Below are positions 3,383-27,678 of a stretch of DNA of 32,000 nucleotides, piece after piece. The first letter of the stretch is position 1; every line of letters begins with the position of its first letter. The stretch is from Propionibacteriaceae bacterium (lineage in GTDB: Bacteria > Actinomycetota > Actinomycetes > Propionibacteriales > Propionibacteriaceae). The stretch lies in the NCBI GenBank assembly GCA_031256725.1, contig JAIRQE010000006.1:120001-152000 (forward strand), written 5' to 3'. Under the pieces are notes generated by a model, which made no database searches, was not told the origin of the DNA, and saw nothing but the letters and a program-made list of their open reading frames with translations. A program made the translations under genes and the position numbers.

Positions 3383-3560
3383 TTGGGACTTTCGGATTAG
3401 CGGTGTAAGTGGCGGTTTTCATTAGCGTTCCTCTGTCGGCGTGCGGTCTGCAAAGGTGATTGCGAAAGCGTGGAGTGCTGGTTTCTATCGTTGGATCATT
3501 GAAAACCAGAAGGTCCGAGTTCTTAGTTAGCCTCGCAAAGATCGAATCTCCCAGCTACAC

Positions 3561-3591
3561 AATTAGCACTCTCGTCGCTAGAGTGCTAATT
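3561..3591. promoter_or_regulatory. Perfect 12-bp inverted repeat (AATTAGCACTCT-N7-AGAGTGCTAATT): operator or terminator
   Basis: Read directly from the sequence. It lies 56 nt upstream of the AAA+ gene start and 179 nt downstream of the RloB stop. It overlaps a possible promoter (TTAGCA, 18 nt, TAATTT) and could equally form a 12-bp RNA stem followed by UUUGGG. Confidence 0.45.
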
Positions 3592-3646
3592 TGGGAGTAA
3601 CATAGTTACATGCGTGTGATTACGACAGTAAGAAGGCAGGTGAACC

Positions 3647-4918: not shown

Positions 4919-4932
4919 AGAAGTAGGAGCCC

Positions 4933-6255
4933 ATGATGGGATTACGCGAAAAATGGGAAAAACACAAGAAGAAAAAACAGCAGATAGATTCACTTAACAG
5001 CAACCCAGAACCGGTGTTACGAGATTTTGTCTATCTAGATGAGCAGAGTCTACAAAGCCTACTGTCCTCAACTAGTGGCGAAATTGCAGACCATCGATCA
5101 GAAAGCACTTCGGAGGGCATCAACAGTGAATTTGGAGCCTCGATAGGAGCAGGGAGTCCCTCTCCCCTGAAAGCAGAGGTTTCCTCTCGGTTTCAAGCCA
5201 CAGATACACGAATGGTCCAAACATCCCGCCGAGCGACAGTCCAGTCTTGGTTTCGCGATTTTCATAAAATCGCTAATCTCAAACTCTTGGATCTGGGGAA
5301 GGCTAGAGTCGAGAAGAAGCCTGATTTGTCTGAAGTGAAGGAGACATCACTCCTTGCATCAACATCACAACTTAGGCGTGGAGAACTCATTGAGCTACGA
5401 GTGAGGCTCGCTCCAGATCCAGTGTATTCATTGAGCGCAGTGATGTCGGAATATGCATACATCGCTCAAGCGAATCCGGACATGTTTGGGGCTAGTGATA
5501 AGAAAGTACTATCTCAACTCCTTCAGGTAAACACTATTATGGAACGGCTTCTAGTCGGTCTTATCCCAATCAAGGCTACTGCAATTGACTATTCGGTGTA
5601 TGAGGCCAATGGTGAGCTATGCATAATTCATAATGATCTTATTCAGAATGCATCAACGGCAATGAGTCAACTAAAGATCACTGGGGTAACTGATCACTCC
5701 TCTTATTGGAAAGACCTACGTCGCGTCCTCTTCGCAGATTCCGAGTTCACATTACTTGGGAGAATTAGCCAAAGTGGAATCAAGTCCACCTGGACACCTG
5801 TGAAACTTGCGGATGTTTTCGGAATCGTAAAACCCGACCTTGTACATCAATTCCAGGAGTTGTCCCAAATGACAAACATTGACTTGGGAATAAAGGATTC
5901 AACACTCATGTTGGCTTTGCGCTCCTATGCCCAAACGCTTCTTGCTCAACAATCCATCACTTTGGGGGAGGTGCAGCAACAGCTTCTTGAGGAGAGAATA
6001 TGTGGTCTCCGGAGTGAAGGAGTTCCAATTTCTTCACAATGCAAGGCATTTAGTGTGGTTCGCGAACTCTTGCAGGATTGGTTTGACATTGAAATCGATC
6101 CTTCGGATGATGTCGCTTTGCGTGAACAAGCTCGCAATGAAAATGGACTGTCGCTCTTTGGTACACAAACTCAATCTAGCTCACCAATCGAGAAGACTCA
6201 GCCAAATAAGAAAGAGCACCTACTCGAAGTGGAAATCATCGCGATTTACTGGTAG
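4933..6255 (+). CDS. Uncharacterised 440-aa partner of the AAA+ ATPase (possibly DUF6414/DolA-like)
   Basis: The ATG lies 14 nt after the ATPase stop and follows AGGAG. The ORF is long and clean. The N-terminus is Lys-rich, followed by FVYLDEQSLQSLLSS and a Ser/Gly-rich segment. There are no TM helices and I recognise no catalytic motif. The C-terminus ends ...VEIIAIYW. Confidence 0.75.
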   Translation: MMGLREKWEKHKKKKQQIDSLNSNPEPVLRDFVYLDEQSLQSLLSSTSGEIADHRSESTSEGINSEFGASIGAGSPSPLKAEVSSRFQATDTRMVQTSRRATVQSWFRDFHKIANLKLLDLGKARVEKKPDLSEVKETSLLASTSQLRRGELIELRVRLAPDPVYSLSAVMSEYAYIAQANPDMFGASDKKVLSQLLQVNTIMERLLVGLIPIKATAIDYSVYEANGELCIIHNDLIQNASTAMSQLKITGVTDHSSYWKDLRRVLFADSEFTLLGRISQSGIKSTWTPVKLADVFGIVKPDLVHQFQELSQMTNIDLGIKDSTLMLALRSYAQTLLAQQSITLGEVQQQLLEERICGLRSEGVPISSQCKAFSVVRELLQDWFDIEIDPSDDVALREQARNENGLSLFGTQTQSSSPIEKTQPNKKEHLLEVEIIAIYW

Positions 6256-6372
6256 AAAAAACAGGGGTTACCTGGATGGACTGACTCTGAGTGATATCAA
6301 TAATCGAGTGCCATTATCTGGATCTCTAAACCAATATGACGACAAAGCTACAGTACTGCTACTCTCGATGTT

Positions 6373-7029
6373 GTGAAAAGGAATGTTTCTAGAACCACCT
6401 CGGGACGCAAGCATGTTTTCAATTTCATCATGGGTGTTTTTACAGGCGCAATAGCTCTTATTCTTGGAACTCTTGCTCTTCAAGCTCTTTTCCCACAAGA
6501 TAGCCCCACTTCTTTACCGCGAGAGACAGTAACTGTAACTCATACACCCTCATCAATCAGCACACCCACGAATCCATCCCAGGCACCAACTGAAGCTGAG
6601 ACTGGAGGTTCTACAAGTCTCTTTGAAAGACCCTTAATAGATAGTAAGCGCTACAATGAATACCACCAAGGTGGTACCCTTTTCCAAGACTCATATGGAA
6701 ATAGATACAATGAATGCCACTCTTTCAGCGCTGGGAACTACACAACCTCGTATGCCGTCTATAACTTAGATCGAAATTATACCTATTTTAATGCTTTGAT
6801 TGTTGGGAGCAGCGAGATTCGCTCTGAAAACACTTTCGTAATTCGAGTACTCCTGGACGAGAAGCAAATCTTCATCAAAGATGATTTCACTAAAAGAACT
6901 GAGCCTTTTCCGCTTTCTATCCCAATTACCGATGCGCTCCGACTCACTGTCGAAGTGTCCCTAGTAAACGATTACTGGCAAAGCGACGAAGGGTCCACCA
7001 TTTACTTAGTTAACGCAACGGTCTCATAG
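6373..7029 (+). CDS. Single-pass membrane-anchored protein with a Pro/Thr/Ser linker and a C-terminal NPCBM-like beta-sandwich
   Basis: A basic N-tail is followed by a hydrophobic helix FNFIMGVFTGAIALILGTLALQALF (about 6421-6495) and a PT-rich linker. The C-terminal pattern AVYNLDRNYTYFNALIVG...FVIRVLLDEKQIF...LRLTVEV resembles NPCBM/discoidin-like domains. The start is uncertain (GTG at 6373 or ATG at 6430). Confidence 0.6.
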   Translation: MKRNVSRTTSGRKHVFNFIMGVFTGAIALILGTLALQALFPQDSPTSLPRETVTVTHTPSSISTPTNPSQAPTEAETGGSTSLFERPLIDSKRYNEYHQGGTLFQDSYGNRYNECHSFSAGNYTTSYAVYNLDRNYTYFNALIVGSSEIRSENTFVIRVLLDEKQIFIKDDFTKRTEPFPLSIPITDALRLTVEVSLVNDYWQSDEGSTIYLVNATVS

Positions 7030-7371
7030 CCGTCGATCAAAGACAGGTCTCTTGTTTAAGATACCTTTCATTGAAATGTTCTCGGAACCGATTCACTCGA
7101 ACAGCTGCGGCGCAATACTGAAATGGCCAAGAAAGCCAGGCGCTGCCTAATGAAGCTTGAACGAGTATTCAGAAACTGACTCTCCTGGAATCAGGGATTA
7201 TCCTCGGAGATTTCATCTGCATTTCATATCTGAAAGACTCATGAATCTCCTGGATCACCCTTTCTGTTAATCGATAATGCCTCCTCTGTTGTGGGTTCGC
7301 TGGCTTACCACCCAACCCACGGACCGAGGACAATTCATAGAGGTCTCGATATGCAACAGTGGCACATAAGG

Positions 7372-7752
7372 GGCTCTTCACAATCGAGAGTGTAGATAGG
7401 GTCTGAATCCTCCGGTTTCGAGTAGGGATCGGGCGATGTAGTGGGTGAGGTTTCTGAAGCCGAGGGCGATACCGCCGAGGTGTTCGAGTCTTCCGTTGAT
7501 AGCTTCGGTGGGGCCGTTCGAGGTGTGGGGATGATGGAAGTAGGCGAGGATGTCACCCATGCGTCGTTTCAGGGTCCGGCCAAGACGTTTGATTTCCACG
7601 TATCCTGGGGGTATCCCGTAACAGATGGACATGATGAGGTGTTTCAATCGGGTTCGTCCACGGGTGCGATCCGGGTCTCGGTAGGCAGCGACGATACGCT
7701 GGTAGACACTCTGATAGTATCCAAGAAGCGTCAGCGTGGATCGGTGACTACA
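7372..7752 (-). mobile_element. ISL3-family insertion sequence remnant (3' fragment of the transposase plus terminal inverted repeat)
   Basis: Minus-strand translation gives ...LAYFHHPHTSNGPTEAINGRLEHLGGIALGFRNLTHYIARSLLETGGFRP, a typical ISL3 transposase C-terminus. An upstream in-frame extension ...YYQSVYQRIVAAYRDPDRTRGRTRLKHLI stops at an in-frame TAG (7753-7755). An ISL3-type terminal repeat GGCTCTTCACAATCG begins at 7372. The first two-thirds or so of the transposase is missing. Confidence 0.75.
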
Positions 7753-7793
7753 CTAGCCAGCACCAACAACCGCGACAGGGTCCAGACTGATGG

Positions 7794-9986
7794 TCACAAC
7801 GACTCTCCTGATGTGTTCCCAAGCCCTTCAAATGTCACATCGTCGAGTTCGTGTGCAGACTCTGGGGCCACTTCATCGACCACTTCCGCATCGACCTCTC
7901 CCATGCTCTGAAGATATTCATTTCGTAGGTCGTATAGACGTTTTCCTGAACTTTGAATGATCCAGAACCACCAACCATTGACTGTGCGTCCCTTGATCGC
8001 TCTGCCTGCTCCTGATGGGGTCTCAAATACGTCAGAACCAATGTAGATGCGTCCGTCTCTTGATACAACAGCCAAGGTCTCAGATGCTTCCCGTCCTACA
8101 GGTTGTGAACTGGGTATGAGAACTGCTCCTGCTTCAAGCCATCCGTCTGATATCAACTGAGCCAAGTCTACGGAGACGGTACTCTGATCACTCCCGGCTG
8201 CCTCAAGTCCTACGTGGCCGACAGGAACAGGCCACACTTCCAGAATCTGCGAAATCAACAACGCCGTGCGGTCTGTAATGGTTTGTTCGTCCCATCCTTC
8301 TTCACCCATCACCATGGCTTCATTTGTTAGCAGTACGTCGCTGATTGACTTGAAATGATCTCGCTTAGTTTGCCATGTACCATTCGAGACTTTGCTGTTT
8401 AGGGCCTGCGTAACAAGTGTGAGGTTTCCAATCTCCTGAACAACACGATCTCGTCGAGCCTCTTCTTCGGGTGAAAGATCATCTTGCCAGTTTCTGCGCC
8501 ACTTCTGAGGCATCAAATGCTCCAGCGTTCCTTTGTTCCTGGTGATTGGACCCATTGCCAGACGGTGTCCTGTGGGGTAACCACGTTGTGCATCTTCAAG
8601 GGCTTCGAACACCATACGTAGTCTTGCCCTGACATATTTCCAGTACGCAGCTGTACCTGTGAGTGCGGTTCTAACTTCCGTGTCGCCTGGCCAGTAGCCA
8701 ACGGGAGTGTGATTGCTAGCTAGGAATGCTTCAACAGCGCCAGATAGATTCTCGAAGGAGTTGTCGCTCAAATGACGCAGAAGATCCATAATGAAACGGT
8801 TGGACCCTTGAGAAGAGGCTTTCACCAACGCTCGTCGAACAAACCAACTCTCCAAGATTCCAAGAACGCGCTCGCGTTCCTGTTCGGGTATTGACTCCTG
8901 TTCCGGTTCATCCAACCAGATCAGGAGTGGCCGAGCAATTTCGGAATTGAGTGTGCCGACGCGGTAACTGAAGAGTTCGATTCGTGACAGAACTCCATCA
9001 TCTCTGTTGGATGATTCGATGACTGAACGATATCTGTCTGCGGCGGTCCTGATATGAGGTAGCAGTGCTCCAATGTCTTTAGCCACAGTGTTCACATAAT
9101 GCTTGAACTGGGTAAACACTTCGCGTGTCGGGAACTCCTTCAACGTTCGGGCACTTAACCATTGCGAGAGAAAGAGAGAGGCTCGGGAATGCTTGATTCT
9201 GCCGGATGTTATCTCGACTTCCCACCAGGGAGTCTCGAATTGTGCCCAATACTTCAAGTATGCATTTTCGGCATCATGCTCATCGACTTGTTGGAAGACG
9301 AAGTTCTTAATCAGGTCAGCTGCCGACAAAGGCGTTCCTCGCGCATTAAGAGTCTCGAAGATGGCTTGCGCATCTTCTGTGGAATCCAGACCAATTGACA
9401 CGATTTCAATTCGATCACTAATGGCAGCAACTAGCACCTTTGCTCGCGTTTCGGTATCACCTTCGTCGAACCACGAACTGATGACGTTCCTGAAGAAGCG
9501 ATATGCGTCATTGAGACGACAGGGAAGTGGGTTGCCTGATGCAGACATAACCGAGACAAAACCTTCGCGATCCCGATTCGTAGGCCACAGTTTGAATCGA
9601 TCCTCTTCAGTTTCGCGGTTGTCCACCGGATTTTCAATCAGTGGACGAATGCGTCCAACGAGCCCAATCAAGTCTCTTCGTTCTAGCTCATCCTTAAGGG
9701 CAGCGAGCAACAGTTGAAGTGTCGTCAATCTCTGTTGCCCGTCAATGACATTCCAAGTAGGAAGGCTTCCTAATGCAATTTGTGTTTGCTGGATAACGAT
9801 TGCACCCAGGAAATGGGTAGCTGCACTGTTGTGTTCAGAGATGACTTCAATCAGGCGAACGATATCCTGCCACAAGGGTTCCCACTGAGCTTCTTTCGAC
9901 CACACATAGGGTCGTTGAAAGAGCGGTACCACTAGTTTTTTCGGATTGAAGAATATGTCTTGGGGTTTTATGACATCAGTCTTCAC
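7794..9986 (-). CDS. GmrSD-family DUF262 + DUF1524 (HNH-like) enzyme with a C-terminal RAMA-like domain; putative type IV (modification-dependent) restriction enzyme
   Basis: The DUF262 motifs are PLFQRPYVWSKEAQWEPLWQDI and DGQQRLTTL (about 9721-9749). The DUF1524 motifs are GTLEHLMPQKW (about 8509-8531) and GNLTLVTQALNSKVSNGTW. The C-terminal GRIYIGSDVFETPSGAGRAIKGRTVNGWWFWI...LYDLRNEY matches the RAMA/DUF4357 pattern. Confidence 0.9.
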   Translation of the reverse strand: MKTDVIKPQDIFFNPKKLVVPLFQRPYVWSKEAQWEPLWQDIVRLIEVISEHNSAATHFLGAIVIQQTQIALGSLPTWNVIDGQQRLTTLQLLLAALKDELERRDLIGLVGRIRPLIENPVDNRETEEDRFKLWPTNRDREGFVSVMSASGNPLPCRLNDAYRFFRNVISSWFDEGDTETRAKVLVAAISDRIEIVSIGLDSTEDAQAIFETLNARGTPLSAADLIKNFVFQQVDEHDAENAYLKYWAQFETPWWEVEITSGRIKHSRASLFLSQWLSARTLKEFPTREVFTQFKHYVNTVAKDIGALLPHIRTAADRYRSVIESSNRDDGVLSRIELFSYRVGTLNSEIARPLLIWLDEPEQESIPEQERERVLGILESWFVRRALVKASSQGSNRFIMDLLRHLSDNSFENLSGAVEAFLASNHTPVGYWPGDTEVRTALTGTAAYWKYVRARLRMVFEALEDAQRGYPTGHRLAMGPITRNKGTLEHLMPQKWRRNWQDDLSPEEEARRDRVVQEIGNLTLVTQALNSKVSNGTWQTKRDHFKSISDVLLTNEAMVMGEEGWDEQTITDRTALLISQILEVWPVPVGHVGLEAAGSDQSTVSVDLAQLISDGWLEAGAVLIPSSQPVGREASETLAVVSRDGRIYIGSDVFETPSGAGRAIKGRTVNGWWFWIIQSSGKRLYDLRNEYLQSMGEVDAEVVDEVAPESAHELDDVTFEGLGNTSGESL

Positions 9987-10105
9987 GAGTGATCCCCCTC
10001 CTTGGTGAGCTGCATCGGATTAATACTGCATCAGTCTATTGCATGGGAATTGTTGAGCTATATCGGCGCAAGTAATGCAGTCTCCCATCATGTCCTTAAA
10101 AATGG

Positions 10106-10190
10106 ACCACACTTCTTGCTGACGAGGTTTTAGGCCCTCTGCAACCCCTGCATGCTGGCTCTGTTTTCCTCGTCAGCCAGAAGTGTGGTC
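10106..10190. repeat. Long imperfect inverted repeat (23-bp arms, 22/23 complementary, 39-nt spacer)
   Basis: GACCACACTTCTTGCTGACGAGG (10106-10128) pairs with CCTCGTCAGCCAGAAGTGTGGTC (10168-10190). It lies in the intergenic region between the divergent GmrSD-like gene and the 10390 ORF. Confidence 0.7.
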
Positions 10191-10389
10191 GAGATTCCGT
10201 CGGTGATTTGGTGACCGATTGAAGAGAGGCGGGCACTGGAGTGAATGCAGTGCAGGGATGTGCAGCACTGAACAATTCTCTCCTTCAACCGACTACATAG
10301 TGAGGAAGTTTTTGCAGCGCTCAGTTGGGTTGCAGCCCTGCACGGGTGCTGCATGCCTCCTACACAGGTCATGCAAGGAAAGGACGATC

Positions 10390-11091
10390 ATGCCCGAATC
10401 AATCATCGTACTGACTCAACGATACCTACAACTGAAATCCATAATCGGCGATGAATACGCTAAGGAGCGCCCTGTCCCGATCCTGGGAAGAGGAAGAAAG
10501 CGGAGGGATGCCCGCAAGGATGCAGCCGAACGTCTTGGAGCCGGGGTATCGTACGCTACTTTTGAGAAGGTGGCCTGGCTGTTGGAAGTGTCGGGAAATA
10601 CGAAGCGACCCTTGGGGATGCAGGCAGCCTGGGACGCTCTGGCAGCCATCAGGCAAGGTGGCACCGTCGATTGGCCGTACAAGACTGCTGTGTCTGTGGC
10701 GCTGATCGAGGAACTGGATCACCTCTCGAAGAACAGCGATCCCGAGGTGAGGAGTATTGCTGAGCGTGAGTATCTTCGCGTGAGACGGTTTCAGAAAGAC
10801 TGGCGGACTGACAAACTGGAGTTCGAGGTCCGACAGGCAGTGCAGCGGGTGCAGACCTTCCGAAACATCCTTCACTATGACTACCGTGAGGACGAAGTAA
10901 CCCATTACTTCCTTTTCCAAAGCCATATCGCTGACGTAAACCCAAAACCCCTTGTCGTACGGTGGAGCACAATTTGCACCACCGTACGACAAGGAATAAC
11001 TCTCTTGCGCCATGGTCATAAGGTTGGGCGGAAAGTACGTTCCAGAATGTCGGCGGTGGCTGGGTTCACCATTTCGCTTCGGCGGATGTAA
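10390..11091 (+). CDS. Hypothetical island protein (possible HTH/ParB-like DNA-binding region)
   Basis: The ATG at 10390 follows AAGGAAAGGA. The protein is charged and helical, with GVSYATFEKVAWLLE resembling an HTH. The track start at 10219 adds an implausible Cys-rich extension. The 3' end overlaps the integrase 3' end by 76 nt (convergent), so the true end or the reality of the gene is uncertain. Confidence 0.4.
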   Translation: MPESIIVLTQRYLQLKSIIGDEYAKERPVPILGRGRKRRDARKDAAERLGAGVSYATFEKVAWLLEVSGNTKRPLGMQAAWDALAAIRQGGTVDWPYKTAVSVALIEELDHLSKNSDPEVRSIAEREYLRVRRFQKDWRTDKLEFEVRQAVQRVQTFRNILHYDYREDEVTHYFLFQSHIADVNPKPLVVRWSTICTTVRQGITLLRHGHKVGRKVRSRMSAVAGFTISLRRM

Positions 11092-12197
11092 TGCTGGACT
11101 GTGATCTTAGGATCAGTGTGACCAAGAAGTTCAGCAGCGAGATCAATAGAGGCGGTTTCACTGATCGCGGTGGCCACGGTTCGACGGAACATGTGTGGGG
11201 TGACACCTTCGATCCCTGCCAGGTTGAGCACATGCCTGAGTTGTCGGCGTACGTTATTGGTTGTCAAGGGCGTACCATTTCGCGAACAGAAAACCAACGC
11301 ATCTGGGGAGATGTCAGTCATGGCCTCTAGGCGCGCCCTAATAGCTTGGGCCGTGAAACTTGGGATCGCGATAACTCGCCGTGACTTGGCTGTCTTCGGA
11401 TGGTCCTGGCGATATGGGGCGAGCCCTCTCGGGGTGACGATGGTGCCTCGAATGGCAATGGACGGTGTAGGACTTTCAACATCCACGTCTCGCCTTCGGA
11501 TAGCCAAGGCCTCGCCAATACGAGCCGAGGTACCCAGCATGACCTCGATGATGGCTGAGAGTTGGCCGTCTGGTCGTGGACCGCTGGGGACGATCCCGGT
11601 TTCCCAGAATCGTACAGCGATCCTGACTGAGTTCACTTCTTCAGGGGTCATGGCATCCGGTGTGTGCGCCGGTTTGTGGAGTCGGGCGATCCCATCCATG
11701 GGGTTTCTGGGAATGATTTCGTGGCGCACGGCCAACCCAAACGCCAACCGAAGAACGACCTTAGCTTGTCGAGCCTTGTTGTAGGAGACCTTCAGCAGGT
11801 TCTTGATGAGCATGTCGCATCGTGCGACACCAATCTCTCTTAAGGTCAGGTTCTCGAAGGCTGGCAGTACAAGTTGCCGCATGTGATACCGGTAGCGATC
11901 TCGGGTCTGTTGGGCAAGGCGATTCTCTAACTCGATGTCCTCCAACCAATACTCAACCAAATCACCAAAGGATGAATCCGGGGTGAGACCTGAAACAGGT
12001 GGTTGGAACAGGGTTCGCTGGGCAAGCTTGACTTTGAGGTTCTGCTCCGCTTGGCGTTTGCTCGTACCAACAGCTTGAACAAGACGACTCTTGCCATCCC
12101 AGTCGCGATACCTGGTGCGGGCTTCGACCCTGCCTTGAGTGGTGCGAAGGAAGGTGACCTCACCGAAGGTTCCAATGGGGATTCTAGGTCTGGTCAT
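11016..12197 (-). CDS. int: Tyrosine recombinase / phage-type integrase
   Basis: The C-terminal catalytic region is HMFRRTVATAI...LGHTDPKITVQHYIRR. The N-terminal arm-binding-like domain is IPIGTFGEVTF...RTRYRDWDGKSR. It lies next to a tRNA 3' end. Confidence 0.95.
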   Translation of the reverse strand: MTRPRIPIGTFGEVTFLRTTQGRVEARTRYRDWDGKSRLVQAVGTSKRQAEQNLKVKLAQRTLFQPPVSGLTPDSSFGDLVEYWLEDIELENRLAQQTRDRYRYHMRQLVLPAFENLTLREIGVARCDMLIKNLLKVSYNKARQAKVVLRLAFGLAVRHEIIPRNPMDGIARLHKPAHTPDAMTPEEVNSVRIAVRFWETGIVPSGPRPDGQLSAIIEVMLGTSARIGEALAIRRRDVDVESPTPSIAIRGTIVTPRGLAPYRQDHPKTAKSRRVIAIPSFTAQAIRARLEAMTDISPDALVFCSRNGTPLTTNNVRRQLRHVLNLAGIEGVTPHMFRRTVATAISETASIDLAAELLGHTDPKITVQHYIRRSEMVNPATADILERTFRPTL

Positions 12198-12418
12198 TGT
12201 GACTCACCCCGGTTCCTGGCATCGTCTCGGTGGAGAGCCATCCATGCCTTCACATCCGAGCTCATGAACTTCAGATGCTTGCCTAGGCGGTAGGCCATGG
12301 GGCCTTTGCCATGGGTACGCCAGTCGTAGATGGTGGATACAGGGATGCCGAGAAACTCGGAGAGTTCCGTTACGGACAATAGACGTTGCGGTGTCTGATT
12401 CTGGTTAGTGTCGGTCAT
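12194..12418 (-). CDS. xis: Excisionase / AlpA-type helix-turn-helix DNA-binding protein (74 aa)
   Basis: LLSVTELSEFLGIPVSTIYDWRTHGKGPMAYRLGKHLKFMSSDVKAW is a typical MerR-superfamily excisionase HTH. The ATGA stop/start overlaps int. I used the internal ATG at 12418 (MTDTNQ...) rather than the track start at 12622, which runs to within about 47 nt of the tRNA through att-flanking sequence. Confidence 0.8.
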   Translation of the reverse strand: MTDTNQNQTPQRLLSVTELSEFLGIPVSTIYDWRTHGKGPMAYRLGKHLKFMSSDVKAWMALHRDDARNRGESQ

Positions 12419-12668
12419 GTACGACAGGTGCGACAGCATTCCCTGGACCAATACAGATCGCTGCCACTGACATGGACCATTCCTGGATGCTGCGACTTCG
12501 CGCAGCATGACACAGGGCTCTTCAAACACCAAAACAGGCTTCCAAAAGCGATTCAGACAAGGTGAAACGAACTCAAAATGATGAGTTTTTGATGGGTAGA
12601 TCAAATCGGAGACTCCTCTCAATGAAGAGGAAACTGGCCCTGACTAGCCAAAACAGTCCGACATTTTG

Positions 12669-12742
<74 letters not shown>

Positions 12743-12961
12743 TACTGGCTCCTACACTTCACATATCCGAAGCATGAAGCCTGAGAGAGTCTACTATAAA
12801 ACTTACATATCTGTCGTGGAATGCTCCCCAACCACCACCATGCAGGGCACTGCAAACTGACGCGCACATGAAGTAGAATCACAATGTGACAGAGACTCAG
12901 CATCCCGAACCCACTATGGCGACTGTGAAACAACTCATGCGACTGCTCTGCGGACATGCTA

Positions 12962-12997
12962 TTCCTGTGCCCTGAACCCGAACACTGTCAACACGAC
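12962..12997 (+). repeat. 36-bp direct repeat, copy 1 (pairs with 13241-13276; 30/36 identical)
   Basis: Copy 1 reads TTCCTGTGCCCTGAACCCGAACACTGTCAACACGAC. Copy 2 reads TTCCTATGTCCTGAACCAAGACACTGTCAACCCGAC. Confidence 0.7.
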
Positions 12998-13240
12998 TAT
13001 CATGCTATCTCTATAGTGGAGATGGTTGACAACGGGAAGCCCGCCACCTATCCGACTTATTAGCTATACTAATTCCATGACCGTAGCTGCCGCTGTTGCG
13101 GCGGCACTGGCTTTATCAGATGCTGATCGTGAGGCTATCATACTACTCGACACAAACCCGCTCTGTATCGGGCCATTGATGATTAGTTTCGCGATAGACA
13201 TTCATCCATCGTCGCGTTTCCTATGTCCCGAGACAGGGGT

Positions 13241-13337
13241 TTCCTATGTCCTGAACCAAGACACTGTCAACCCGACAGTTGTGTCAACCCGACACCGTCA
13301 ACCCGACAGTGTCAACCTGGCAGTGTCAACCTGGCAG
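13241..13337 (+). repeat. Direct-repeat copy 2, running into five tandem iterons of GTCAACC(CGACA/TGGCA)
   Basis: GTCAACC occurs at 13266, 13283, 13297, 13311 and 13325, with spacings of 17, 14, 14 and 14 nt. CTGTCAACCCGACA (13264-13277) is an exact inverted copy of the tRNA-Pro 3' end plus 2 flanking nt (12667-12680). Confidence 0.8.
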
Positions 13338-13618
13338 ATTGGTGAGTATATGGCCTAGTCAAGCTGGGTTTATCCATGAGCGAAAGGTTCATGGAAGTGA
13401 ACAGGTCATACTTTAATCATATTAAACTCTTTTTGCGAGTGTAAGCTGTTGAAAGGATGCTGGATTGGTTGGGGTTATCTGGGAGTACTGTCGCACCTGG
13501 TAAGTGTGAATAAAGAATCAACTTTATGGGATTTGGAACCGCTGATGAGTATTTCCGAATTGGCCCGATACCTGGGGATTCAGTAGATGGCGCAGCGCGA
13601 TGAGGTAGGCTGGGCATC

Positions 13619-16600
13619 GTGGCTTCCTCATCCTCGATCTCCTCGTTGGTTGCTGCGGCCATACATCTGTTCTCCGGTAACTCTGGCGGTGTAACAACAT
13701 CACTCATCAACGCGGGATGGCCGACAATGCAGGAGGCATTCAGGCCAACGCTCGAAGCGAAGCGTTTGAGGCAAGACGTCAGAAAAGCCATCCACGAGTG
13801 GGCCGAAGGCGACAATGTCGCGAATGCTGATATTGATACGGGCCTAGAGATCGCTAAGGCTTCTATCGAGCAGTTTGGGTTTTCCAAGAAAGAACTGGAA
13901 GAGTGTGGCTTGAATGCGGAGAACGCCGCCAGCCGAGTGATCCTAGCCGCCTCAAGTCGAGAGCCTTCCTGGTCTCTGCAAAGGGCTGAGTTCAACGTTG
14001 CTGAACACGCCATTCGCGCAACATATGCAGCACTAATCAGAGCCTGCCTTTCAGAGCCCGGCTATCTCGAGGCGAGATTTCGTGAAATCGAGTCCGAGCT
14101 TGCGCTTCTTCGGGTGGCCTTCGCGCGTTTGTCGAGAATCCCAGCGCAGGTTAACCCGAACAATTCCGATATCATGCGAGCGATACGGATCTATCTCAAT
14201 GCCCGCATCATCGACTGGAATGCCCTCCCAGACTGGCTTGGTGGTCGTTCCCTCTCGTCATTGGCGCGACCATTGGTACTACGGAGCCCATTCGAACCCG
14301 GATCGCCTGACAAGAATGAGATTGATGCGCTTGAGGGTGCCCAGATGATGGTTGTGGTGGGCGAACCGGGATCGGGAAAGACCTGGCTCTCCAAGAGGTA
14401 TGCGCTCGTGGCGGCCAGGAAAGCAATAGCTGCTCTTGATGAGGGCAAACCACTCAGCGAGGTGGAGATCCCGATCTGGACCACATGGGCAGCCTGGAAA
14501 GACACTCCGGGGCCAACCCGCGAGAGTCTCGTACGAGCGTCATTCGATCGAGTCATGGCAGTGGGTAGCCTGACGGATGAAGACCAGGGTTTCGACAACC
14601 TGATTCAGCGCGTACTCAGTCAAGCAGGCAAAGCCCTGGTGTTGGTGGACTCCCTTGACGAAGGGCCCATCGGGAATGACCGTGACGCCCTTGCCACGTC
14701 GCTTACGACGCTGCCTGGACAGAAGTGGCGTGTAGTGATCACGAGCAGGCCTGGAGCATGGAGCGCGACAAACCTCAACAGATCTGACCGCGCAGCGCCG
14801 ATCCGCATGACCGAAATCCAACCACTCGCATGGCCAGATGATGTCGAGGTCTTCGTAGGTGATTGGTTCGGCCGAGATCGTGACAACGCGACAAAACTTT
14901 TGCATCAAATACGCGCTCGCGATGATCTACAACGGGTCTCTGTCAGCCCAATGCTGCTTACTTTCCTCTGCTTGCTCGGCCCAACATCCGCCGCGTTTCC
15001 GCCAAAGCGGTTCGACCTGTTTGAAGAAGTAGCCAGGCGCATTCTGAGCGCGCCGTGGCGACGAGTCGAGACTTCCACCGACGTACAATCATGTTTGGCG
15101 CAACTCACACAATGGGCATGGAGCATCGCTGCTTCGGCTCAACCGACTGCCACCACTAACTGCCACCACTATCGGACTACGTACATGGAAAGATAGATTT
15201 GCATGTGACGATGATCCGCCTAGTGGGCTTCGTGCTGTCGACAATATTGCGCCTCTTCTATCTGATGGATTTGGGCGACCAAGAGAACGCCAATTCATTC
15301 ACCGGCTGGTCCTTGAACACTTCATTGCTCGTTATCTTACCGGACTCCCGGTCAACGACGTCTACAGGTATCTTCTTCCCCATTTGTGGTTCGATGAGGA
15401 TTGGGAGTACCTCATTTCTACGGTCATTGTGTCCCATCGTGATAATGATGCACTTCTCTCTCGCCTACTAGACAAGGCACGGTCGTCTTGCCATGACAGA
15501 GCCCATATGGAGGCTGGGTCACAGATCGAAGATATGCTCATCGGACTAGCGGACCAGTCGCAACCGACCGACTGGTCTGCGCCAAACTGTGAGCGAATCA
15601 GGCGAGCGCTACTGGGGCCAGCGACCGGGAGTTGGCGCGCAACTACTGCCAGCGCAAGAATCTGGATCTCGCAGACTTCCCAAGAAACAGCGGCAAATGG
15701 TATCACCCGAGAGCTTGAATCGGCAAATCCACGCCAGATTCCCGATCTCGTGGATCGGCTCCTCCGTCTGAATCCCAATTTTTCCCAGCGTGAACATGCT
15801 GTCAACATTGTTGAAAAGGGCTTGGTGTCTTCATCATCAGTGGAAGATACGTCGCGGATGCTGAGGCAACTCATCGCGTTAGGATCGACAGAAGCGGAAG
15901 TCCGCAAGGTCATTTTGAGCGCGTTTGCAGGAAATGTCGCGTGCAAGACTCCGGAGATCTTGACGACGGAGCTGCTGCGGCTCCGGCCAACCGTGCAAGA
16001 GCGTCAGCATTGCGCACAGAGCCTCACCAGACTGCTTCTTACGAGCCGTGATCCCTACACGCCGCTTAGTGCGGTGGATGGCTTGCTACGGCTGCCTGCC
16101 AACGATCGAGAGCGCCTTCTGGTAATCAACCAGGTACAGAGGTTCGTTGTGCAGAATGAACCACCTGAAGGATGGGACATGCTCTGTATTGTGCGCCCTC
16201 TGTTTCGCTTCGCCGACACCGATGCAAAGCGTTTGAAGGCTTTGGATGATATCGTTACCGGGCGTCAAAAGGCAGCATGGTGGCCATGCCCCGGCCTTTC
16301 GGAGGCGCTGGTGCGTCTGGCCGACACCGAGGAACGCCGCCGAATCGCGATTGGCGGGATTGTTTCGGCTCTCGGAGAGGATAGTAGAGGCGCTGAGTTG
16401 CGTCAGATGGATGCCTTGCTTGTCTTGGCTGACAGTCAGAAGTGGCGCGATTACGCGGTTGTTCTGATTGCTGAGTCAGCAGGTGGCGACCGTCCGAAGC
16501 TCGATCTAGCCAAGGCGATGCTGGCCCCTCTAGACACACGGGAGTGGCGAGATACTGTCCTTCGTGCATTGTCTGCGTACCATGTGCCGGTAAATGGGTT

Positions 16601-16859
16601 AATAGATACCTTGGTCAATAACTTCGACAGTAGCCAGTGGCGCCAGATGATCAGGGATTTGATTCTCCTGGTCCTGCCGACAACGGGAGAGAGACGCGAA
16701 TTGGTGGACAAGCTCCTTTCGCTGGACCCCAGCCCTGAGCACCTGCGCCGGGCGGTAGGCATCCTCACCAATCTGGCGAACTCACATGACATTGCCCCGA
16801 GCTTGCGTCGCATGATGACGACGCAAGAGTGGCTGGGCTGGATTACCAGCGCCGGGTGA
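13619..16859 (+). pseudogene. NACHT/STAND NTPase (bacterial NLR-like) with C-terminal helical repeats, split by a frameshift into ORFs 13619-15196 and about 15207-16859
   Basis: Walker A is VVVGEPGSGKTW (about 14351-14386) and Walker B is LVLVDSLDEG (about 14638-14667). The downstream frame is open from well upstream of the track start at 15384. It encodes ...RQFIHRLVLEHFIARYL, the conserved post-NACHT motif. Removing one copy of the 13-bp duplication at 15146-15171 fuses both parts in frame (about 1076 aa). Confidence 0.85.
15146..15171 (+). repeat. Perfect 13-bp tandem duplication (ACTGCCACCACTA x2) causing the NACHT frameshift
   Basis: Read directly: aaccg ACTGCCACCACTA ACTGCCACCACTA tcgg. 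Confidence 0.95.
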
Positions 16860-16968
16860 TTCCAAGGGCTTGAGTCGCTGAACTGATGAGTTCTTGGAAG
16901 ACATCTATACCCTGATCAACTTCAGAAAGATGATCCCCTAGCCACTATAAGTCTGATCGCGATGGTTT

Positions 16969-18267
16969 TCATGCCCACAGCTGAGACTGGGGGTTCGCCA
17001 CGGCTGATGAGAGTACAGCTAAGGCTCCGCCGGTGGCAGCTCCGTAGCGGCCAGAACGGGAGGGGCGTACCTCAAGTTCAGAGGCAAGCCAGCGGGAGGC
17101 GAGGACCCGGGAGTTGATTTCAGTGGAGATCCGGGGAGTGAGGATTTCTGCGAGTGGAACGAAGGAACCACCGAGTATGACGTGGCTCACGTCGATGATG
17201 TTCATGGCTGTGGACAGCGCGACTCCTAGGGCGAAACCAGCGTGGTCAAGGGCTTCAATCGCCCGAGGATCACCTGCTTGATGGGCCTTGATGAGGGTAT
17301 CAATCTGGCCATCAGGATCAAGGCCAGCATTGGTCATGATGGAGCGCGTACCAGCGTATACCTCCAGACATCCTCGCGCGGTACAGGCACACGGGGGGCC
17401 GTGGGGATCGACGGTGAGGTGCCCGATCTCCCCAGCCCATCCGTGAACACCAGTGAAGACACGACCATCAACCACGATGGCTGATCCAATGCCCACATCC
17501 CCAGATAAATAGATGAAGGAGGGATGTGTCTGGGTGGCTATTTCGGCTTGGGCGGCGAGACTGGCTTCGTTGTCGACAAGGAGGTCGTCAACGAGAATCT
17601 GTCGTACGCACGCGAACGTGGAAGCATCAATGGAGGGGTCGACATCCAGGGAATCGATCACTGAGGCCATCGTGGAGTGGATGTCGAGATCATGCCACCC
17701 GAGGTTGGGAGCCAAACGAAGTGGGCCCCGTGGATGGTCGGCGATGCCAGGAAGAGCGAGGCAGGCTCCCAGGATTCTGATCAAGCGCTTGGAGAGGTCA
17801 GTGATGACCTCCATGACCTCGTCGATGAGGGTGGCAAAGGCGCTGACAGGATCCGAGTTGTGCAGGTTGGCCCTCACAAAGGATTCAGCAAGAATGTCGC
17901 CCGTGAGATCAAGGGCACGTACCCCTAGATAATCCACATTGATCTCAAGGCCAATCGAGGCAACAGTACCACGAGCGAGGGTAAGGGGAATGGCTGGGCG
18001 ACCTGCCTTGACCGGGGTGGTTGCAGGTAGTTCGACGATCAGGCTCGCTGCGATGAGGTCACCCACGAGGGTGGACACTGTTGCCTTCGTCAACCCGGTC
18101 GTCTCGGCGAGATCCGCCCGAGAGATAGCCTCCGAGGAACAGATCTGCGAGAAGACCAGTCGAAGATTATGTTCTCTGAGGGATCGTTGGCCAGCCCGAA
18201 TCATAGAGTCGGTGGGAATCACGCGCGTGTGTCGTGCTGCCTGGTCCATGGATATGAATCGTATCAA
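16969..18267 (-). CDS. ROK-family transcriptional regulator (XylR-like), divergent from xylA
   Basis: The N-terminal winged-HTH is NLRLVFSQICSSEAISRADLAETTGLTKATVSTLVGDL. The ROK sugar-kinase-like body includes GEIGHLTVDPHGPPCACTARGCLE. The TTG start at 18267 follows AAGGA; an alternative ATG is at 18249. Confidence 0.85.
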   Translation of the reverse strand: MIRFISMDQAARHTRVIPTDSMIRAGQRSLREHNLRLVFSQICSSEAISRADLAETTGLTKATVSTLVGDLIAASLIVELPATTPVKAGRPAIPLTLARGTVASIGLEINVDYLGVRALDLTGDILAESFVRANLHNSDPVSAFATLIDEVMEVITDLSKRLIRILGACLALPGIADHPRGPLRLAPNLGWHDLDIHSTMASVIDSLDVDPSIDASTFACVRQILVDDLLVDNEASLAAQAEIATQTHPSFIYLSGDVGIGSAIVVDGRVFTGVHGWAGEIGHLTVDPHGPPCACTARGCLEVYAGTRSIMTNAGLDPDGQIDTLIKAHQAGDPRAIEALDHAGFALGVALSTAMNIIDVSHVILGGSFVPLAEILTPRISTEINSRVLASRWLASELEVRPSRSGRYGAATGGALAVLSSAVANPQSQLWA

Positions 18268-18394
18268 AGACAGTCCTTGCGTCCTAGGAGAACCTGACCT
18301 GAGATGGACAGAGGTCTTGTGGCCAATCTGTCGGCTGGCCTATGATGGGAGATAATATGTTCAACGATAGAACTAATACCAAGGAGGGTAATTC

Positions 18395-19585
18395 ATGTCT
18401 ATCCCTACACCGACCCCGAACGATCATTTCTCCTTCGGCATGTGGACGGTCAACTGGCCCGCTCAGGACCAATTTGGCTCGGCAACTCGCGCGATGATGG
18501 ATCCTGTTTATATCGTTCATAAGCTTGCTGAGATTGGAGCCTGGGGAATCACCTTCCACGATGATGACCTCATTCCTTTTGGTACTGCCCCTGCCGAAAG
18601 ACAGGCCATCATTGACTCCTTTAAGAAAGCCCTCGACGAGACCGGAATCGTCTGTGAAATGGTGACGACAAACACCTTCTCTCACCCCATTTTCAAAGAT
18701 GGTGCCTTCACCTCCAATGATCGCCAGGTCCGCCGATTCGGCCTGCGCAAAGTGCTTCGCAATGTTGACCTTGCTGCTGACCTGGGTGCCACGACCTTCG
18801 TGATGTGGGGTGGCCGAGAGGGTGCTGAGTACGACACCTCCAAAGACTACAAGTCGGCTTTGGATCGTTATGCTGAAGGTATTGATACCGTGGCGGCGTA
18901 CATCAAATCCCAGGGGTACAACCTGAAGATCGCGCTCGAACCCAAGCCCAATGAACCCCGTGGTGACATCCTTCTTCCGACCGTCGGACATGCCTTGGGT
19001 TTCATCGCATGTCTGGACAATGGCGATATTGTCGGACTCAACCCTGAGGTTGGCCACGAACAGATGGCCTGCCTCAATTACACCGCTGGGATCGCCCAGG
19101 CGCTATGGTGTGGCAAGCTCTTCCATATCGACCTCAATAGTCAAAAGGGTGTGAAGTACGATCAGGACCTCGCCTTCGGTCATGGTGACCTCATCAACGC
19201 CTTCTCGACGGTTGACCTGCTGGAGAATGGATTCCCTAATGGTGGTCCTACCTATGAGGGTCCCCGCCACTTTGACTACAAGCCCAGCCGTACGGAATCT
19301 GAAGAAGGAGTATGGGAATCGGCACGGGCCAATATGACGATGTACCTCCTACTCAAGGAGCGCGCCAAGGCTTTCCGTGAGGATTCAGAAATCAAAGACC
19401 TCATGAAGTCTTCGGGTGTGACTGCCCTGGCTGAACCCACACTCGCGGCAGGGGAGACCATCGAATCCTTCATGGCTGACCCGTCAACCTTTGAAGATCT
19501 GGACCCTGATCAGGTCGCAGATCGCGGCTATGACTACATCCGCATCAACCAGATCGCGATGGAATACCTTCTCGGAGCGAGGTAG
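18395..19585 (+). CDS. xylA: Xylose isomerase (class I, actinobacterial type)
   Basis: The protein has 396 aa. It contains [27 protein letters not shown], the metal-binding region [11 protein letters not shown] and PEVGHEQMA. The RBS is AAGGAGG. Confidence 0.95.
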
Positions 19586-19589
19586 TGCC

Positions 19590-21008
19590 ATGACTCTCGT
19601 GGCAGGTGTGGACACCTCAACTCAGTCGTGCAAGGTGGTCATTCGGGATGCTGAGACCGGCGCTAGCATTCGAATGGGATCGGCTCCCCATCCTGAGGGA
19701 ACCGAATGCCACCCCGATCATTGGTGGGCGGCCTTCCAGGAAGCCTGTGAGAAAGCAGGTGGGCTTGATGATGTGTCCGCCATTGCCGTGGGTGGACAAC
19801 AACATGGGATGGTCTGTCTGGATAAGGATGGAGAAGTCGTACGTCCTGCTCTGCTGTGGAATGACAACCGTTCAGCCCGGGCTGCAGACGATCTCATCTC
19901 AGAGCAAGGTCGCCAGTTCTGGGCCGAATCCTGCGGGTCGATTTTGGTGGCCTCGTTCACGGTGACGAAGCTTCGCTGGCTTCGTGACCACGAGCCCGAG
20001 AATGCCTCGCGTGTGGCAGCCGTCTGTCTTCCTCACGACTGGCTCACCTGGCGTATCGCGGGCCACGGTCCACGATCTCAAGGTGGGGATGGCGACCTGT
20101 TTTCCCTGGTCACTGATCGTTCTGATGCCTCGGGGACAGGGTACTGGTCGCCATTCACCAGCGAGTATCTTTCCGAGATCTTAGAAGCCGCCCTGGGCTC
20201 TCGGCCTCTCCTGCCGAGGGTTCTGGGGATTTCGGAATCAGCAGGGACCACAAACTGGGGTGCCCAGATTGGCCCAGGAGCGGGGGATAATGCCGCCGCC
20301 GCCTTGGGCCTGGGACTCCTACCAGGGGATGTCTCCATTTCGTTGGGGACCTCAGGCGTGGTGAGCGCTATCAGTTCCACTGGGATAGCCGACCGCACAG
20401 GTGTTGTGGCGGGGTTCGCTGATGCCACGGGTTCCTTTTTGCCGTTGGTGTGTACCCTCAACGCGTCTCGCATCCTTGATTCTGCCACTCGCATTATGGG
20501 GATTTCCTTTGCGGAAGTGGATGCCCTGGCTCTCAGTGCACCTGCCGGCGCTGAGGGGCTGAGACTCGTACCCTTCTTTGAGGGAGAGAGAACCCCACCA
20601 CTGCCGCAGGCCACGGCCGCCCTCCACGGGATGACCTTGGCCAACTGTACCCCGCAGAACATGGCTCGGGCCTTTGTGGAGGCCCTTCTGTGCTGTCAGG
20701 CTGGGGGATTGGAGGCGATCTCCTCCCATGGGTTCACTGCGGAGCGGGTCTTCCTGATCGGCGGTGGTGCGAAGTCAGCAGCGGTACGTCAGATCGCCCC
20801 AAGTGTCTTTGGGTGCGAGGTCGTCGTACCTCCGACTGAGGAATGGGTGGCTATTGGATCTGCACGTCAAGCGGCCTGGGTTCTTGCGGGAACCCCCGAA
20901 CCACCCACCTGGCGCATTGACGGGTATGACACCTATTCGGCCCCTGCTGAACCGATCATCATGACCCAGTATCAGCAGGTACAAAACCTCTTCTTCTCAC
21001 GCGACTGA
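19590..21008 (+). CDS. xylB: Xylulokinase (FGGY family)
   Basis: MTLVAGVDTSTQSCKVVIRD, GGQQHGMV, and a C-terminal FGGY pattern GGGAKS. The ATG at 19590 lies 4 nt after the xylA stop. The track start at 19491 overlaps xylA. Confidence 0.9.
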   Translation: MTLVAGVDTSTQSCKVVIRDAETGASIRMGSAPHPEGTECHPDHWWAAFQEACEKAGGLDDVSAIAVGGQQHGMVCLDKDGEVVRPALLWNDNRSARAADDLISEQGRQFWAESCGSILVASFTVTKLRWLRDHEPENASRVAAVCLPHDWLTWRIAGHGPRSQGGDGDLFSLVTDRSDASGTGYWSPFTSEYLSEILEAALGSRPLLPRVLGISESAGTTNWGAQIGPGAGDNAAAALGLGLLPGDVSISLGTSGVVSAISSTGIADRTGVVAGFADATGSFLPLVCTLNASRILDSATRIMGISFAEVDALALSAPAGAEGLRLVPFFEGERTPPLPQATAALHGMTLANCTPQNMARAFVEALLCCQAGGLEAISSHGFTAERVFLIGGGAKSAAVRQIAPSVFGCEVVVPPTEEWVAIGSARQAAWVLAGTPEPPTWRIDGYDTYSAPAEPIIMTQYQQVQNLFFSRD

Positions 21009-27573: not shown

Positions 27574-27678
27574 ATTATTTATGTCAACACGGGGTGACAT
27601 TGTTTGGCAGTCGCTAAACGGGGAATGAGTATGCCTTGAGGTGCCTTGGGGTGCTCTATTGAACGGGGAGGTGTTCGA

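Follow-up and report, generated by a model that had tools for sequence, protein, structure and literature searches.

A 13-bp tandem duplication has probably inactivated a divergent NACHT-type STAND NTPase gene beside a tRNA-Pro defence island in an uncultured actinobacterium

About 25% of Actinomycetota genomes encode NACHT proteins, and D[GAS]hDE has been identified as the Walker B signature specific to them (Kibby et al., bioRxiv 10.1101/2022.07.19.500537). The bNACHT proteins described by Kibby et al. are single chains in which an N-terminal domain is followed by a NACHT module, consisting of NBD, helical domain and winged helix, and by a C-terminal repeat superstructure. A gene from an uncultured actinobacterium shares this layout once one copy of a 13-bp tandem duplication is removed: the repaired protein features the Walker A lysine as well as a D[GAS]hDE Walker B motif, and the gene resides in a defence-island neighbourhood. 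It differs from the described bNACHT genes in several respects. Its closest non-self match in a full HMMER scan of 1.84 billion representatives is only 36% identical; neither the repaired protein nor either of its two fragments matches a PADLOC family; and the NCBIfam model EruA hits the P-loop only and not significantly (E 0.029, 12.5 bits against a cut-off of 1000). In addition, the N-terminal helical domain of about 200 aa is without a Pfam match, its separate AF2 model (pLDDT 80.9) gave no fold hit in the PDB at E < 3, and the gene is frameshifted.

The lesion itself invites comparison with a second set of systems. Perfect, spontaneous duplications within the open reading frames of the pneumococcal genes cap3A, cap8E and tts lead to loss of function and are precisely excised to give the wild type, according to Waite et al. 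(2001, 2003, cited in PMC4022640), and an intra-ORF duplication reversible by precise excision is also cited for phcA of Ralstonia solanacearum (Poussier et al. 2003, in bioRxiv 10.1101/2023.04.27.538605). The locus studied here likewise contains a perfect tandem duplication within an ORF that is restored by precise excision. It also resembles simple-sequence-repeat contingency loci, where slipped-strand mispairing alters the number of repeats and a gene under fluctuating selection is thereby moved in or out of frame. However, ON/OFF switching of the cap and phcA genes was observed in experiments and at frequencies that depend on duplication length, whereas a single static sequence is at hand here. 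The simple-sequence-repeat loci consist of multi-copy homopolymer or 2-7-nt tracts that are kept in orthologues, whereas the present tract is two-copy, 13-nt and lineage-specific.

The following features define the disruption. Positions refer to the window, i.e. the whole 32-kb stretch of DNA that was analysed.

15146 to 15158, plus strand: first of the two 13-bp units, ACTGCCACCACTA, coding in the repaired gene for T-A-T-T in the loop ...SAQPTATTIGL...
15159 to 15171, plus strand: copy 2 of the 13-bp unit ACTGCCACCACTA, the extra 13 bases by which the reading frame is moved +1
13619 to 15196, plus strand: N-terminal fragment ORF, 525 aa from GTG 13619 or 489 aa from ATG 13727 (Logan call)
15172 to 15383, plus strand: stranded segment (repaired residues 514-584) in frame B, without a start and absent from both fragments
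15384 to 16859, plus strand: C-terminal fragment ORF, 491 aa from TTG 15384 (repaired residue 585)

The two copies of ACTGCCACCACTA are arranged head to tail with 26/26 bases in register, exactly where the original prediction had placed them, and their junction reads ...CCACCACTA followed directly by ACTGCCACC... As the period is broken on both flanks (G15145 versus A15158, T15172 versus A15159), the tract comprises exactly 2.0 copies. Microhomology flanking the unit boundaries is absent. Among unit lengths of 7-60 bp, the whole 32 kb contain two perfect tandem duplications, of which the 13-bp one is the sole intragenic case; the other is a 14-bp duplication in a non-coding array at 13307. In 200 first-order Markov shuffles, units of at least 12 bp were never perfectly duplicated in tandem, and 2% of the shuffles showed such a duplication of at least 10 bp. 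Related loci harbour 18 perfect tandem duplications with units of at least 12 nt in 522 kb, some of them in frame and within NACHT homologues, and the 13-bp duplication thus belongs to an ordinary mutation class. Local DNA structure was considered as a cause of the duplication and rejected, because predicted folding at this site is weakly better than that of shuffled sequences (z = -2.4) and the repeat plays no informative part in it.

Frame A is open from 13604 to 15196, with a GTG at 13619 and a stop codon ending at 15196, while frame B is open from 15048 to 16859, leaving an overlap of 148 nt that is open in both frames. Removal of one copy results in a single ORF of 1075 aa reading ...SAQPTATTIGLRTWKDRF..., in line with the earlier proposals that the 13619 frame ends at 15196, that the remainder continues in a +1 frame already open upstream of the duplication and that deletion of one copy yields an ORF of about 1076 aa. 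The N-terminal fragment contains 513 native residues, comprising an all-helical N-terminal domain (residues ~1-200), the P-loop NTPase, the helical domain and the first winged-helix helices, followed by 12 out-of-frame residues (NCHHYRTTYMER) and the stop; it is represented by collection entry P0025, in which residues 2-513 are matched at 100%. The C-terminal fragment (P0024), which another annotation starts at ATG 15507 (residue 626, giving 450 aa), holds the end of the NOD module and a helical-repeat, sensor-like region and lacks the NTPase domain. Since frame B is devoid of ATG, GTG and TTG between 15048 and 15384, neither fragment can contain residues 514-584. This stranded segment carries the invariant residues W519, F555 and H557, the near-invariant R553 and H584, and the winged-helix motif RQFIHRLVLEHFIA (repaired residues 553-566, nt 15288-15329), which corresponds to the F-x-H-R...E-H-F-x-A motif noted previously.

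Three further features were located in the repaired protein.

14360 to 14383, plus strand: Walker A/P-loop GEPGSGKT, residues 248-255, with G251, G253 and K254 invariant in an alignment of 61 sequences
14648 to 14662, plus strand: Walker B D-S-L-D-E, residues 344-348, with D344, D347 and E348 invariant in the 61 sequences and in agreement with D[GAS]hDE
15672 to 16847, plus strand: about 11 helical-hairpin repeats of ~36 aa (repaired residues ~681-1072), a predicted HEAT/ARM-like alpha-solenoid

Pfam NACHT (PF05729) is matched by residues 243-417 with 31.1 bits versus a cut-off of 26.7, and 11 of 13 homologues carry a precomputed assignment to this family. AF2 modelling of the repaired protein (pLDDT 84.3, pTM 0.79) gave a structure whose top Foldseek matches in the PDB are NLRC4, NOD2 and the NLRP3 NACHT (4kxf, 5irl, 7alv; E 2e-9 to 5e-7, probability 1.00), and a conserved winged-helix histidine motif, FxH...E.h.A, is common to the bacterial protein and these animal NLRs. 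Sequence identity to them is, in contrast, 10-13%, the repaired protein has neither CARD nor PYD, and helical-hairpin repeats take the place of LRRs; global TM scores reach only 0.27-0.33 because the repeat domains differ. The solenoid is deduced from AF2 secondary structure, profile matches to designed helical repeat proteins and Foldseek matches to the HEAT solenoids of transportin and condensin. Only after repair does the NTPase chain carry the winged-helix extension, modelled by AF2 as helices and strands between residues 464 and 570. As sequenced, the winged helix is interrupted by the duplication at residue 513, and residues 514-584 are untranslatable; the window therefore holds a disrupted NACHT member, a pseudogene. 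That a single NACHT/NLR-like gene is split by the duplication, as originally suggested, is thus borne out by the Pfam score, the DSLDE motif and the NLRC4/NOD2/NLRP3 folds.

Comparison with relatives bears on whether the two ORFs might be natural. The repaired 1075-aa protein is colinear with the examined relatives, and residues 509-513 are crossed in one frame or alignment stretch by 13/13 homologues from the first search, at 21 of the 23 best genomic loci and in 147 of 148 listed representatives. Invariant residues flank the break, A500 on the upstream and W519, F555 and H557 on the downstream side. Orthologues naturally encoded as two genes with the same junction had been named as an observation that would speak against a disrupted gene; the relatives proved to be single polypeptides through the junction. 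It has to be considered that the two ORFs encode cooperating subunits or that they are joined by a programmed +1 ribosomal frameshift within 15048-15196. Such an arrangement would be compatible with the 148 nt open in both frames and with public records in which both fragments (525 aa and 450 aa) are listed as proteins. We regard it as extremely unlikely, however, as the break lies within the winged-helix domain and not at a domain boundary, 71 conserved codons are left without a start codon, no relative among the best genomic loci and listed representatives is split here, and the shift is due exactly to the duplicated 13-mer, which is the signature of a mutation and not of a conserved recoding site. 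Slippery heptamer and homopolymer are both absent, convincing ribosome-binding sites were detected neither before 15384 nor before 15507, and a promoter/terminator scan of 12700-17100 revealed nothing pointing to separate expression of the C-terminal fragment.

The repaired protein belongs to a new, divergent actinobacterial bNACHT clade, of which about 240 representatives are recovered at E <= 1e-30. The duplication tract is missing in all aligned relatives, whose loop is 3-4 residues shorter. Searches of genome contigs and metagenome contigs with the repaired protein revealed no close orthologues or other strains; exact-protein look-ups and 90%-identity clusters contained no relative at >=90% identity; and a DNA pattern accepting either allele retrieved neither a one-copy allele nor a close relative from metagenome contigs. 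Altogether, about 15 billion proteins and the contig collections contain neither a one-copy allele nor a fragment spanning the junction. A word-indexed homology search missed the window's own fragments although they are present in the collection, and statements of absence are therefore founded on the full HMMER scan and the 90%-identity clusters. None of 43 distant genomic relatives shares synteny with the window or has a tRNA-Pro near the gene, i.e. a positional orthologue was not found among them.

The two-copy state is the only one present in both available assemblies. Logan contig SRR14710887_57831 is 100% identical to the window without gaps over 13222-20042 and thus contains both copies, which renders an assembler artefact unlikely. 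A literature search for run SRR14710887 yielded no paper. The NCBI and Logan assemblies probably share one sample and its reads and do not constitute independent biological replicates, and a minor one-copy subpopulation is conceivable because only one population has been sampled. An artefact of sequencing, amplification or assembly, with the organism's gene being intact and one-copy, had originally been left as an option and could draw on the fact that one sample is known and that the source looks metagenome-derived (Logan contig numbers exceed 57,000 and relatives at >=90% identity are lacking). We nevertheless consider it very unlikely, since the two pipelines, one represented by the 182.6-kb NCBI/JGI contig and the other by the Logan contig, agree base for base. 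A k-mer (de Bruijn) assembler emits the junction between copy 1 and copy 2 only if that junction is in the reads, and short-read errors are not known to generate clean 13-bp tandem duplications; both points count against an artefact, as does the intactness of the remaining long ORFs in the window.

Taken together, these observations most likely reflect a recent spontaneous loss of function, caused by a 13-bp tandem duplication in a winged-helix surface loop of a single-chain NACHT-type STAND NTPase. Before the lesion, the gene of this uncultured actinobacterium, a relative of the Propionibacteriaceae, would have encoded a NACHT module flanked by an N-terminal helical domain and a C-terminal solenoid of helical repeats. 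With 13 extra bases the frame is shifted and translation from the native start ends after 12 aberrant codons; the next 71 codons, including those for the invariant winged-helix residues, lack a start codon, the remaining C-terminal half is without an NTPase and a complete NOD module is present in neither product. Switching from sensor to effector would then presumably fail, leaving the gene functionally off, because the two-copy state offers no usable start codon for residues 514-584 with W519, F555 and H557. It counts against complete silencing that public annotations list both fragments as proteins and that a truncated product comprising effector and NBD could keep some activity. The lesion is recent, as already proposed, since the 561 downstream codons contain 0 stops in frame B versus 20 and 29 in the two alternative frames; such openness would arise by chance with P about 1e-11, and GC content by codon position is alike in both halves of the gene. 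Relatives are colinear across the break, removal of a defined indel restores the frame, and conserved W519, F555 and H557 are lost from every possible product: the locus is an ordinary frameshift pseudogene next to a tRNA-Pro defence island.

This island comprises genes for AbiLi/AbiLii, an IetA-like ATPase, a GmrSD type IV enzyme and PDC-S04/Fic, and an integrase and an HTH_17 gene adjoin tRNA-Pro. The 22-nt 3' end of the tRNA was found once only when a second att site for the integrase island was sought; its 14-nt core alone recurs, in inverted orientation. From tested bNACHT analogues and the position beside the defence island we infer that the intact gene may have encoded an anti-phage sensor; the missing PADLOC model match and the N-terminal domain without a recognisable fold count against this role. 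The setting also raises the question of whether the duplication has another origin with the same outcome, namely a target-site duplication left after excision of a transposable element, or fill-in repair of a staggered break through end joining, instead of slippage. A slippage event would not typically lack microhomology at the unit boundaries, the gene lies in a recombination hotspot by tRNA-Pro with integrase and att-like repeats, and Ku/LigD end joining, which is present in many Actinomycetota, would offer a route. Nonetheless, such an origin appears highly unlikely: there is no element remnant between the copies, no IS was seen in the window and excision of bacterial IS seldom leaves a clean doubled target site.

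Spontaneous knockout by tandem duplication is in principle reversible. The gene would be regained if slippage during replication removed exactly one of the two 13-bp repeats, or if a compensating -1/+2 indel arose inside the overlap that is open in two frames. This reversibility is generic to any short tandem duplication and not a dedicated switching mechanism. One may still ask whether the duplication represents the OFF state of a contingency locus whose copy number alternates between one and two often enough to be useful, by which a population would hedge the cost of a NACHT sensor against phage protection in the manner of the pneumococcal capsule genes and Ralstonia phcA. Precise single-copy loss does give an intact, undecayed 1075-aa gene, the gene adjoins a defence island, and tandem duplications in ORFs are documented as reversible switches for phcA and the capsule genes (for the latter Waite 2001/2003, cited in PMC4022640). 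Yet a hypermutable multi-copy repeat tract is not present, there being two copies only and no microhomology at the unit boundaries. The tract is neither conserved nor copy-variable among orthologues but absent from all aligned relatives with their shorter loop, a one-copy allele did not turn up in the collections named above, and the Logan contig passes through the site unbroken. Similar duplications are common one-off mutations, as the 18 cases in 522 kb illustrate. Furthermore, PMC4022640 puts the expected reversion of pneumococcal capsule-gene duplications no longer than 9 bp at about 1e-5 or less, a low value for a contingency locus; the notion that tandem duplications collapse at high frequency was thus overstated for a 13-bp unit. 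The phase-variable switch put forward in the original prediction is therefore unsupported and we deem it very improbable, and it is likewise very improbable that the two-copy phase silences a costly or autotoxic NLR-like sensor, rare one-copy revertants being selected when phage pressure returns.

The significance of a recent knockout at this locus is modest overall. The two public "proteins" of 525 aa and 450 aa represent two parts of a single disrupted gene, for which annotation as a pseudogene is appropriate. The repaired 1075-aa sequence is a candidate for testing what a divergent bNACHT clade senses and does, because it contains a conserved N-terminal helical domain without a recognised fold. 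The locus is a clean case in which a defence gene was inactivated very recently beside an active-looking integrative defence island, and it is consistent with rapid gain and loss of defence genes. If the duplication did act as a switch, a STAND/NACHT defence gene of an uncultured actinobacterium would be phase-variable through a tandem duplication of non-SSR type, and a mixture of one-copy and two-copy alleles in read data, if true, would make the locus an unusual case of an NLR-like gene that is silenced reversibly.

The 13-mer ACTGCCACCACTA is found at positions 15146-15158 and is followed without a gap by an identical second copy at 15159-15171, which Tandem Repeats Finder describes with a period of 13, 2.0 copies and 100% matches. 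Neither flank continues the period (G15145 vs A15158; T15172 vs A15159), which limits the repeat to exactly two copies without flanking microhomology. Among perfect tandem duplications with 7-60-bp units, the whole window contains only one other, a 14-bp duplication at 13307 within a non-coding array, and perfect duplications with units of at least 12 bp appeared in none of 200 Markov shuffles of the window. The duplication thus lies exactly where the original prediction had put it. Two overlapping reading frames meet here:

13604-15196, plus strand, open stretch of frame A, encoding the N-terminal part of a NACHT protein (first start GTG 13619, alternative ATG 13727)
15048-16859, plus strand, open stretch of frame B in an ORF scan, encoding the C-terminal part

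Removal of either copy in silico fuses both frames into a single ORF of 1075 aa (about 1076 had been expected) that reads ...WAWSIAASAQPTATTIGLRTWKDRF...; residue numbers refer to this repaired protein. In the two-copy state, the N-terminal product runs through 513 native residues, continues with NCHHYRTTYMER and then meets a stop. Frame B lacks ATG, GTG and TTG between 15048 and 15384, and residues 514-584 are therefore excluded from every product. The earliest possible start of a C-terminal product is TTG 15384 (residue 585), the annotated one is ATG 15507 (residue 626), and neither is preceded by a convincing ribosome-binding site.

The proposed NACHT/NLR-like identity of the gene is well founded. 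Pfam NACHT matches residues 243-417 with 31.1 bits (gathering score 26.7), and AlphaFold2, given an alignment of 61 sequences, yields a confident model (mean pLDDT 84.3, pTM 0.79) whose top PDB matches are NLRC4, NOD2 and the NLRP3 NACHT (E 2e-9 to 5e-7). The repaired protein is organized as follows:

residues 1-200 (~1-200 in the model; 13619-14220, plus strand), all-helical N-terminal domain
residues ~240-620, NTPase, helical and winged-helix module in the model
residues 248-255, Walker A, GEPGSGKT
residues 344-348, Walker B, D-S-L-D-E, fitting D[GAS]hDE
residues 681-1072, ~11 HEAT/ARM-like helical-hairpin repeats of ~36 residues each in the model

The D[GAS]hDE motif sets NACHT apart from other STAND NTPases (Kibby et al., bioRxiv 10.1101/2022.07.19.500537). 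The helical-repeat region resembles designed helical repeat proteins in profile matches, no PADLOC model matches the protein, and an NCBIfam EruA match is confined to the P-loop. At least 29 relatives share the N-terminal domain (alignment A3), W118 and W200 being invariant and W61 nearly so among 30 aligned sequences. The domain begins with the hydrophobic helix ISSLVAAAIHLF. It has no match in Pfam, and its confident AlphaFold2 model has no fold match in the PDB (best E 3.7), making it a candidate novel domain, of effector or adaptor type, in an actinobacterial bNACHT clade.

Relatives of the protein cross the junction as one gene, which speaks against orthologues that naturally exist as two genes with the same break. 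In a first homology search, all 13 homologues were colinear over residues 509-513. When 1.84 billion protein representatives were scanned exhaustively with HMMER, 1365 proteins matched at E <= 1e-3; the two best matches were the fragments encoded by the window itself, P0025 (525 aa) and P0024 (450 aa), the third was only 36% identical, and 147 of the 148 other proteins among the matches listed aligned in a single stretch through the junction. The junction is also read through in one frame in 21 of the 23 best genomic loci, the remaining two, from the MFD-series MAGs L025 and L026, being fragmentary. Several MAG relatives (L025, L026, L019 and L023) look broken into short frames and could be real pseudogenes or draft-assembly errors (L019 has only ~2.9x coverage). 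Invariant residues lie on either side of the break (A500 upstream; W519, F555 and H557 downstream), and in the model residues 509-513 form a lower-confidence loop between helix 489-505 and strand 522-525, placing the break within the winged-helix domain and not at a domain boundary. Even in its one-copy form this loop exceeds that of relatives by 3-4 residues. A word-indexed search for homologues of the repaired protein missed the window's two fragments, both cluster representatives in the collection searched, and negatives resting solely on that search are to be taken cautiously.

Is the duplication real? Exact-protein look-ups led to a 6821-nt Logan contig of run SRR14710887 that is 100% identical, without gaps, to window positions 13222-20042 and hence carries both copies; its gene calls are the two NACHT fragments. 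The 182,600-nt contig from which the window derives is in NCBI and JGI/IMG. A k-mer (de Bruijn) assembler outputs a copy-to-copy junction only when reads contain it, and with two pipelines in agreement an assembler artefact is unlikely. The assemblies probably share one sample, so that their agreement bears on that population alone. Over the 561 codons 3' of the duplication, frame B has no stops, whereas the two alternative frames have 20 and 29 (chance probability ~1e-11), and GC by codon position is similar in the two gene halves. No second disabling mutation is visible in the NACHT gene, and the frameshift is therefore recent.

The gene is separated by an 877-nt spacer from a tRNA gene, on the other side of which a defence island extends (178-12742):

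178-966, Fic/PDC-S04 protein
1480-3382, AbiLi and AbiLii
3647-4918, IetA-like AAA ATPase
4933-6255, DUF6414 protein, partner of the IetA-like ATPase, lacking a PADLOC match
7794-9986, GmrSD/type IV restriction enzyme with RAMA domain
11016-12197, tyrosine integrase
12194-12622, HTH_17 excisionase-like gene
12668-12742, minus strand, tRNA-Pro(GGG), immediately right of the island
12667-12680, minus strand, 3'-terminal 14 nt of tRNA-Pro, CTGTCAACCCGACA

A second full att repeat was not found within the window. The spacer contains four inverted, plus-strand copies of CTGTCAACCCGACA (12985-12998, 13264-13277, 13281-13294 and 13295-13308; one exact, two with one mismatch, one with two) that precede the NACHT start by ~300-630 nt. 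In all, five matches to the 14-mer were found vs 0.31 expected by chance. The inverted copies overlap a 14-nt tandem array (4.9 copies, 13260-13331) that includes the perfect duplication at 13307, as well as a pair of 45-nt repeats (12953/13232) with 78% identity. As inverted elements, the copies may represent att-core remnants or binding sites for the integrase. Logan contigs of SRR14710887 cover 7670-12696 and 13222-20042, ending within the tRNA and at the repeat cluster, respectively, which fits repeats or strain variation at island borders.

Sugar-utilisation genes lie to the right of the NACHT gene. The closest matches of the sugar-ABC ATPase stem from Propionibacteriaceae MAGs (80-82% identity), and 90%-identity clusters contain no relatives at least 90% identical to window proteins beyond the contig itself. 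An imperfect 18-nt tandem repeat (24503-24541; 2.2 copies, 86% matches) sits at the very start of the ATPase ORF (24500-26119), which is ~20 residues longer than most homologues. A further plus-strand ORF of >1453 aa (27640-32000) continues past the window end; its nine Big_1/invasin-D3 Ig-like domains, together with filamin and MucBP repeats, mark the product as a large surface adhesin.

NACHT relatives in named genomes occur mostly in Actinomycetota (a Propionibacteriaceae MAG, Geodermatophilus, Arthrobacter, Tessaracoccus, Promicromonospora and Brachybacterium), and none of 43 related loci is syntenic with the window. A hint that related integrative elements carry the NACHT family comes from Arthrobacter sp. 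SDTb3-6 (locus L006), where the NACHT homologue (5815-9933) directly follows a gene (4482-5603) for a tyrosine integrase that shares 34% identity with the one in the window.

Precise loss of one 13-bp copy would restore the gene, a -1/+2 indel within the loop would compensate in the same way, and reversible tandem duplications are documented for pneumococcal cap3A, cap8E and tts (Waite et al., 2001, 2003, cited in PMC4022640) and for Ralstonia phcA (Poussier et al., 2003, cited in bioRxiv 10.1101/2023.04.27.538605). A programmed or selected switch is nevertheless very improbable, as all testable hallmarks of a contingency locus are absent: there are just two copies, the duplicated tract is conserved in none of the aligned relatives, and a one-copy allele or junction-spanning fragment is found neither among ~15 billion proteins nor in genome and metagenome contig collections. 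The expected reversion is at most ~1e-5, going by the pneumococcal capsule-gene duplications of up to 9 bp (PMC4022640). Moreover, perfect tandem duplications with units of at least 12 nt are common one-off events, numbering 18 over the 522 kb that related loci span (~1 per 30 kb), and in-frame duplications of 12, 15 and 18 nt exist inside NACHT homologues (L014, 7446; L015, 7514 and 7542). Several units in related loci (13, 14, 16, 23 and 29 nt) are not multiples of three. An ordinary recent frameshift is thus quite probable. While the original prediction was right about the sequence and the gene structure, the reversible switch it envisaged lacks positive support, and the observations are best fitted by a microduplication, recent and of an ordinary kind, that turned a new and divergent bacterial NACHT family member into a pseudogene.
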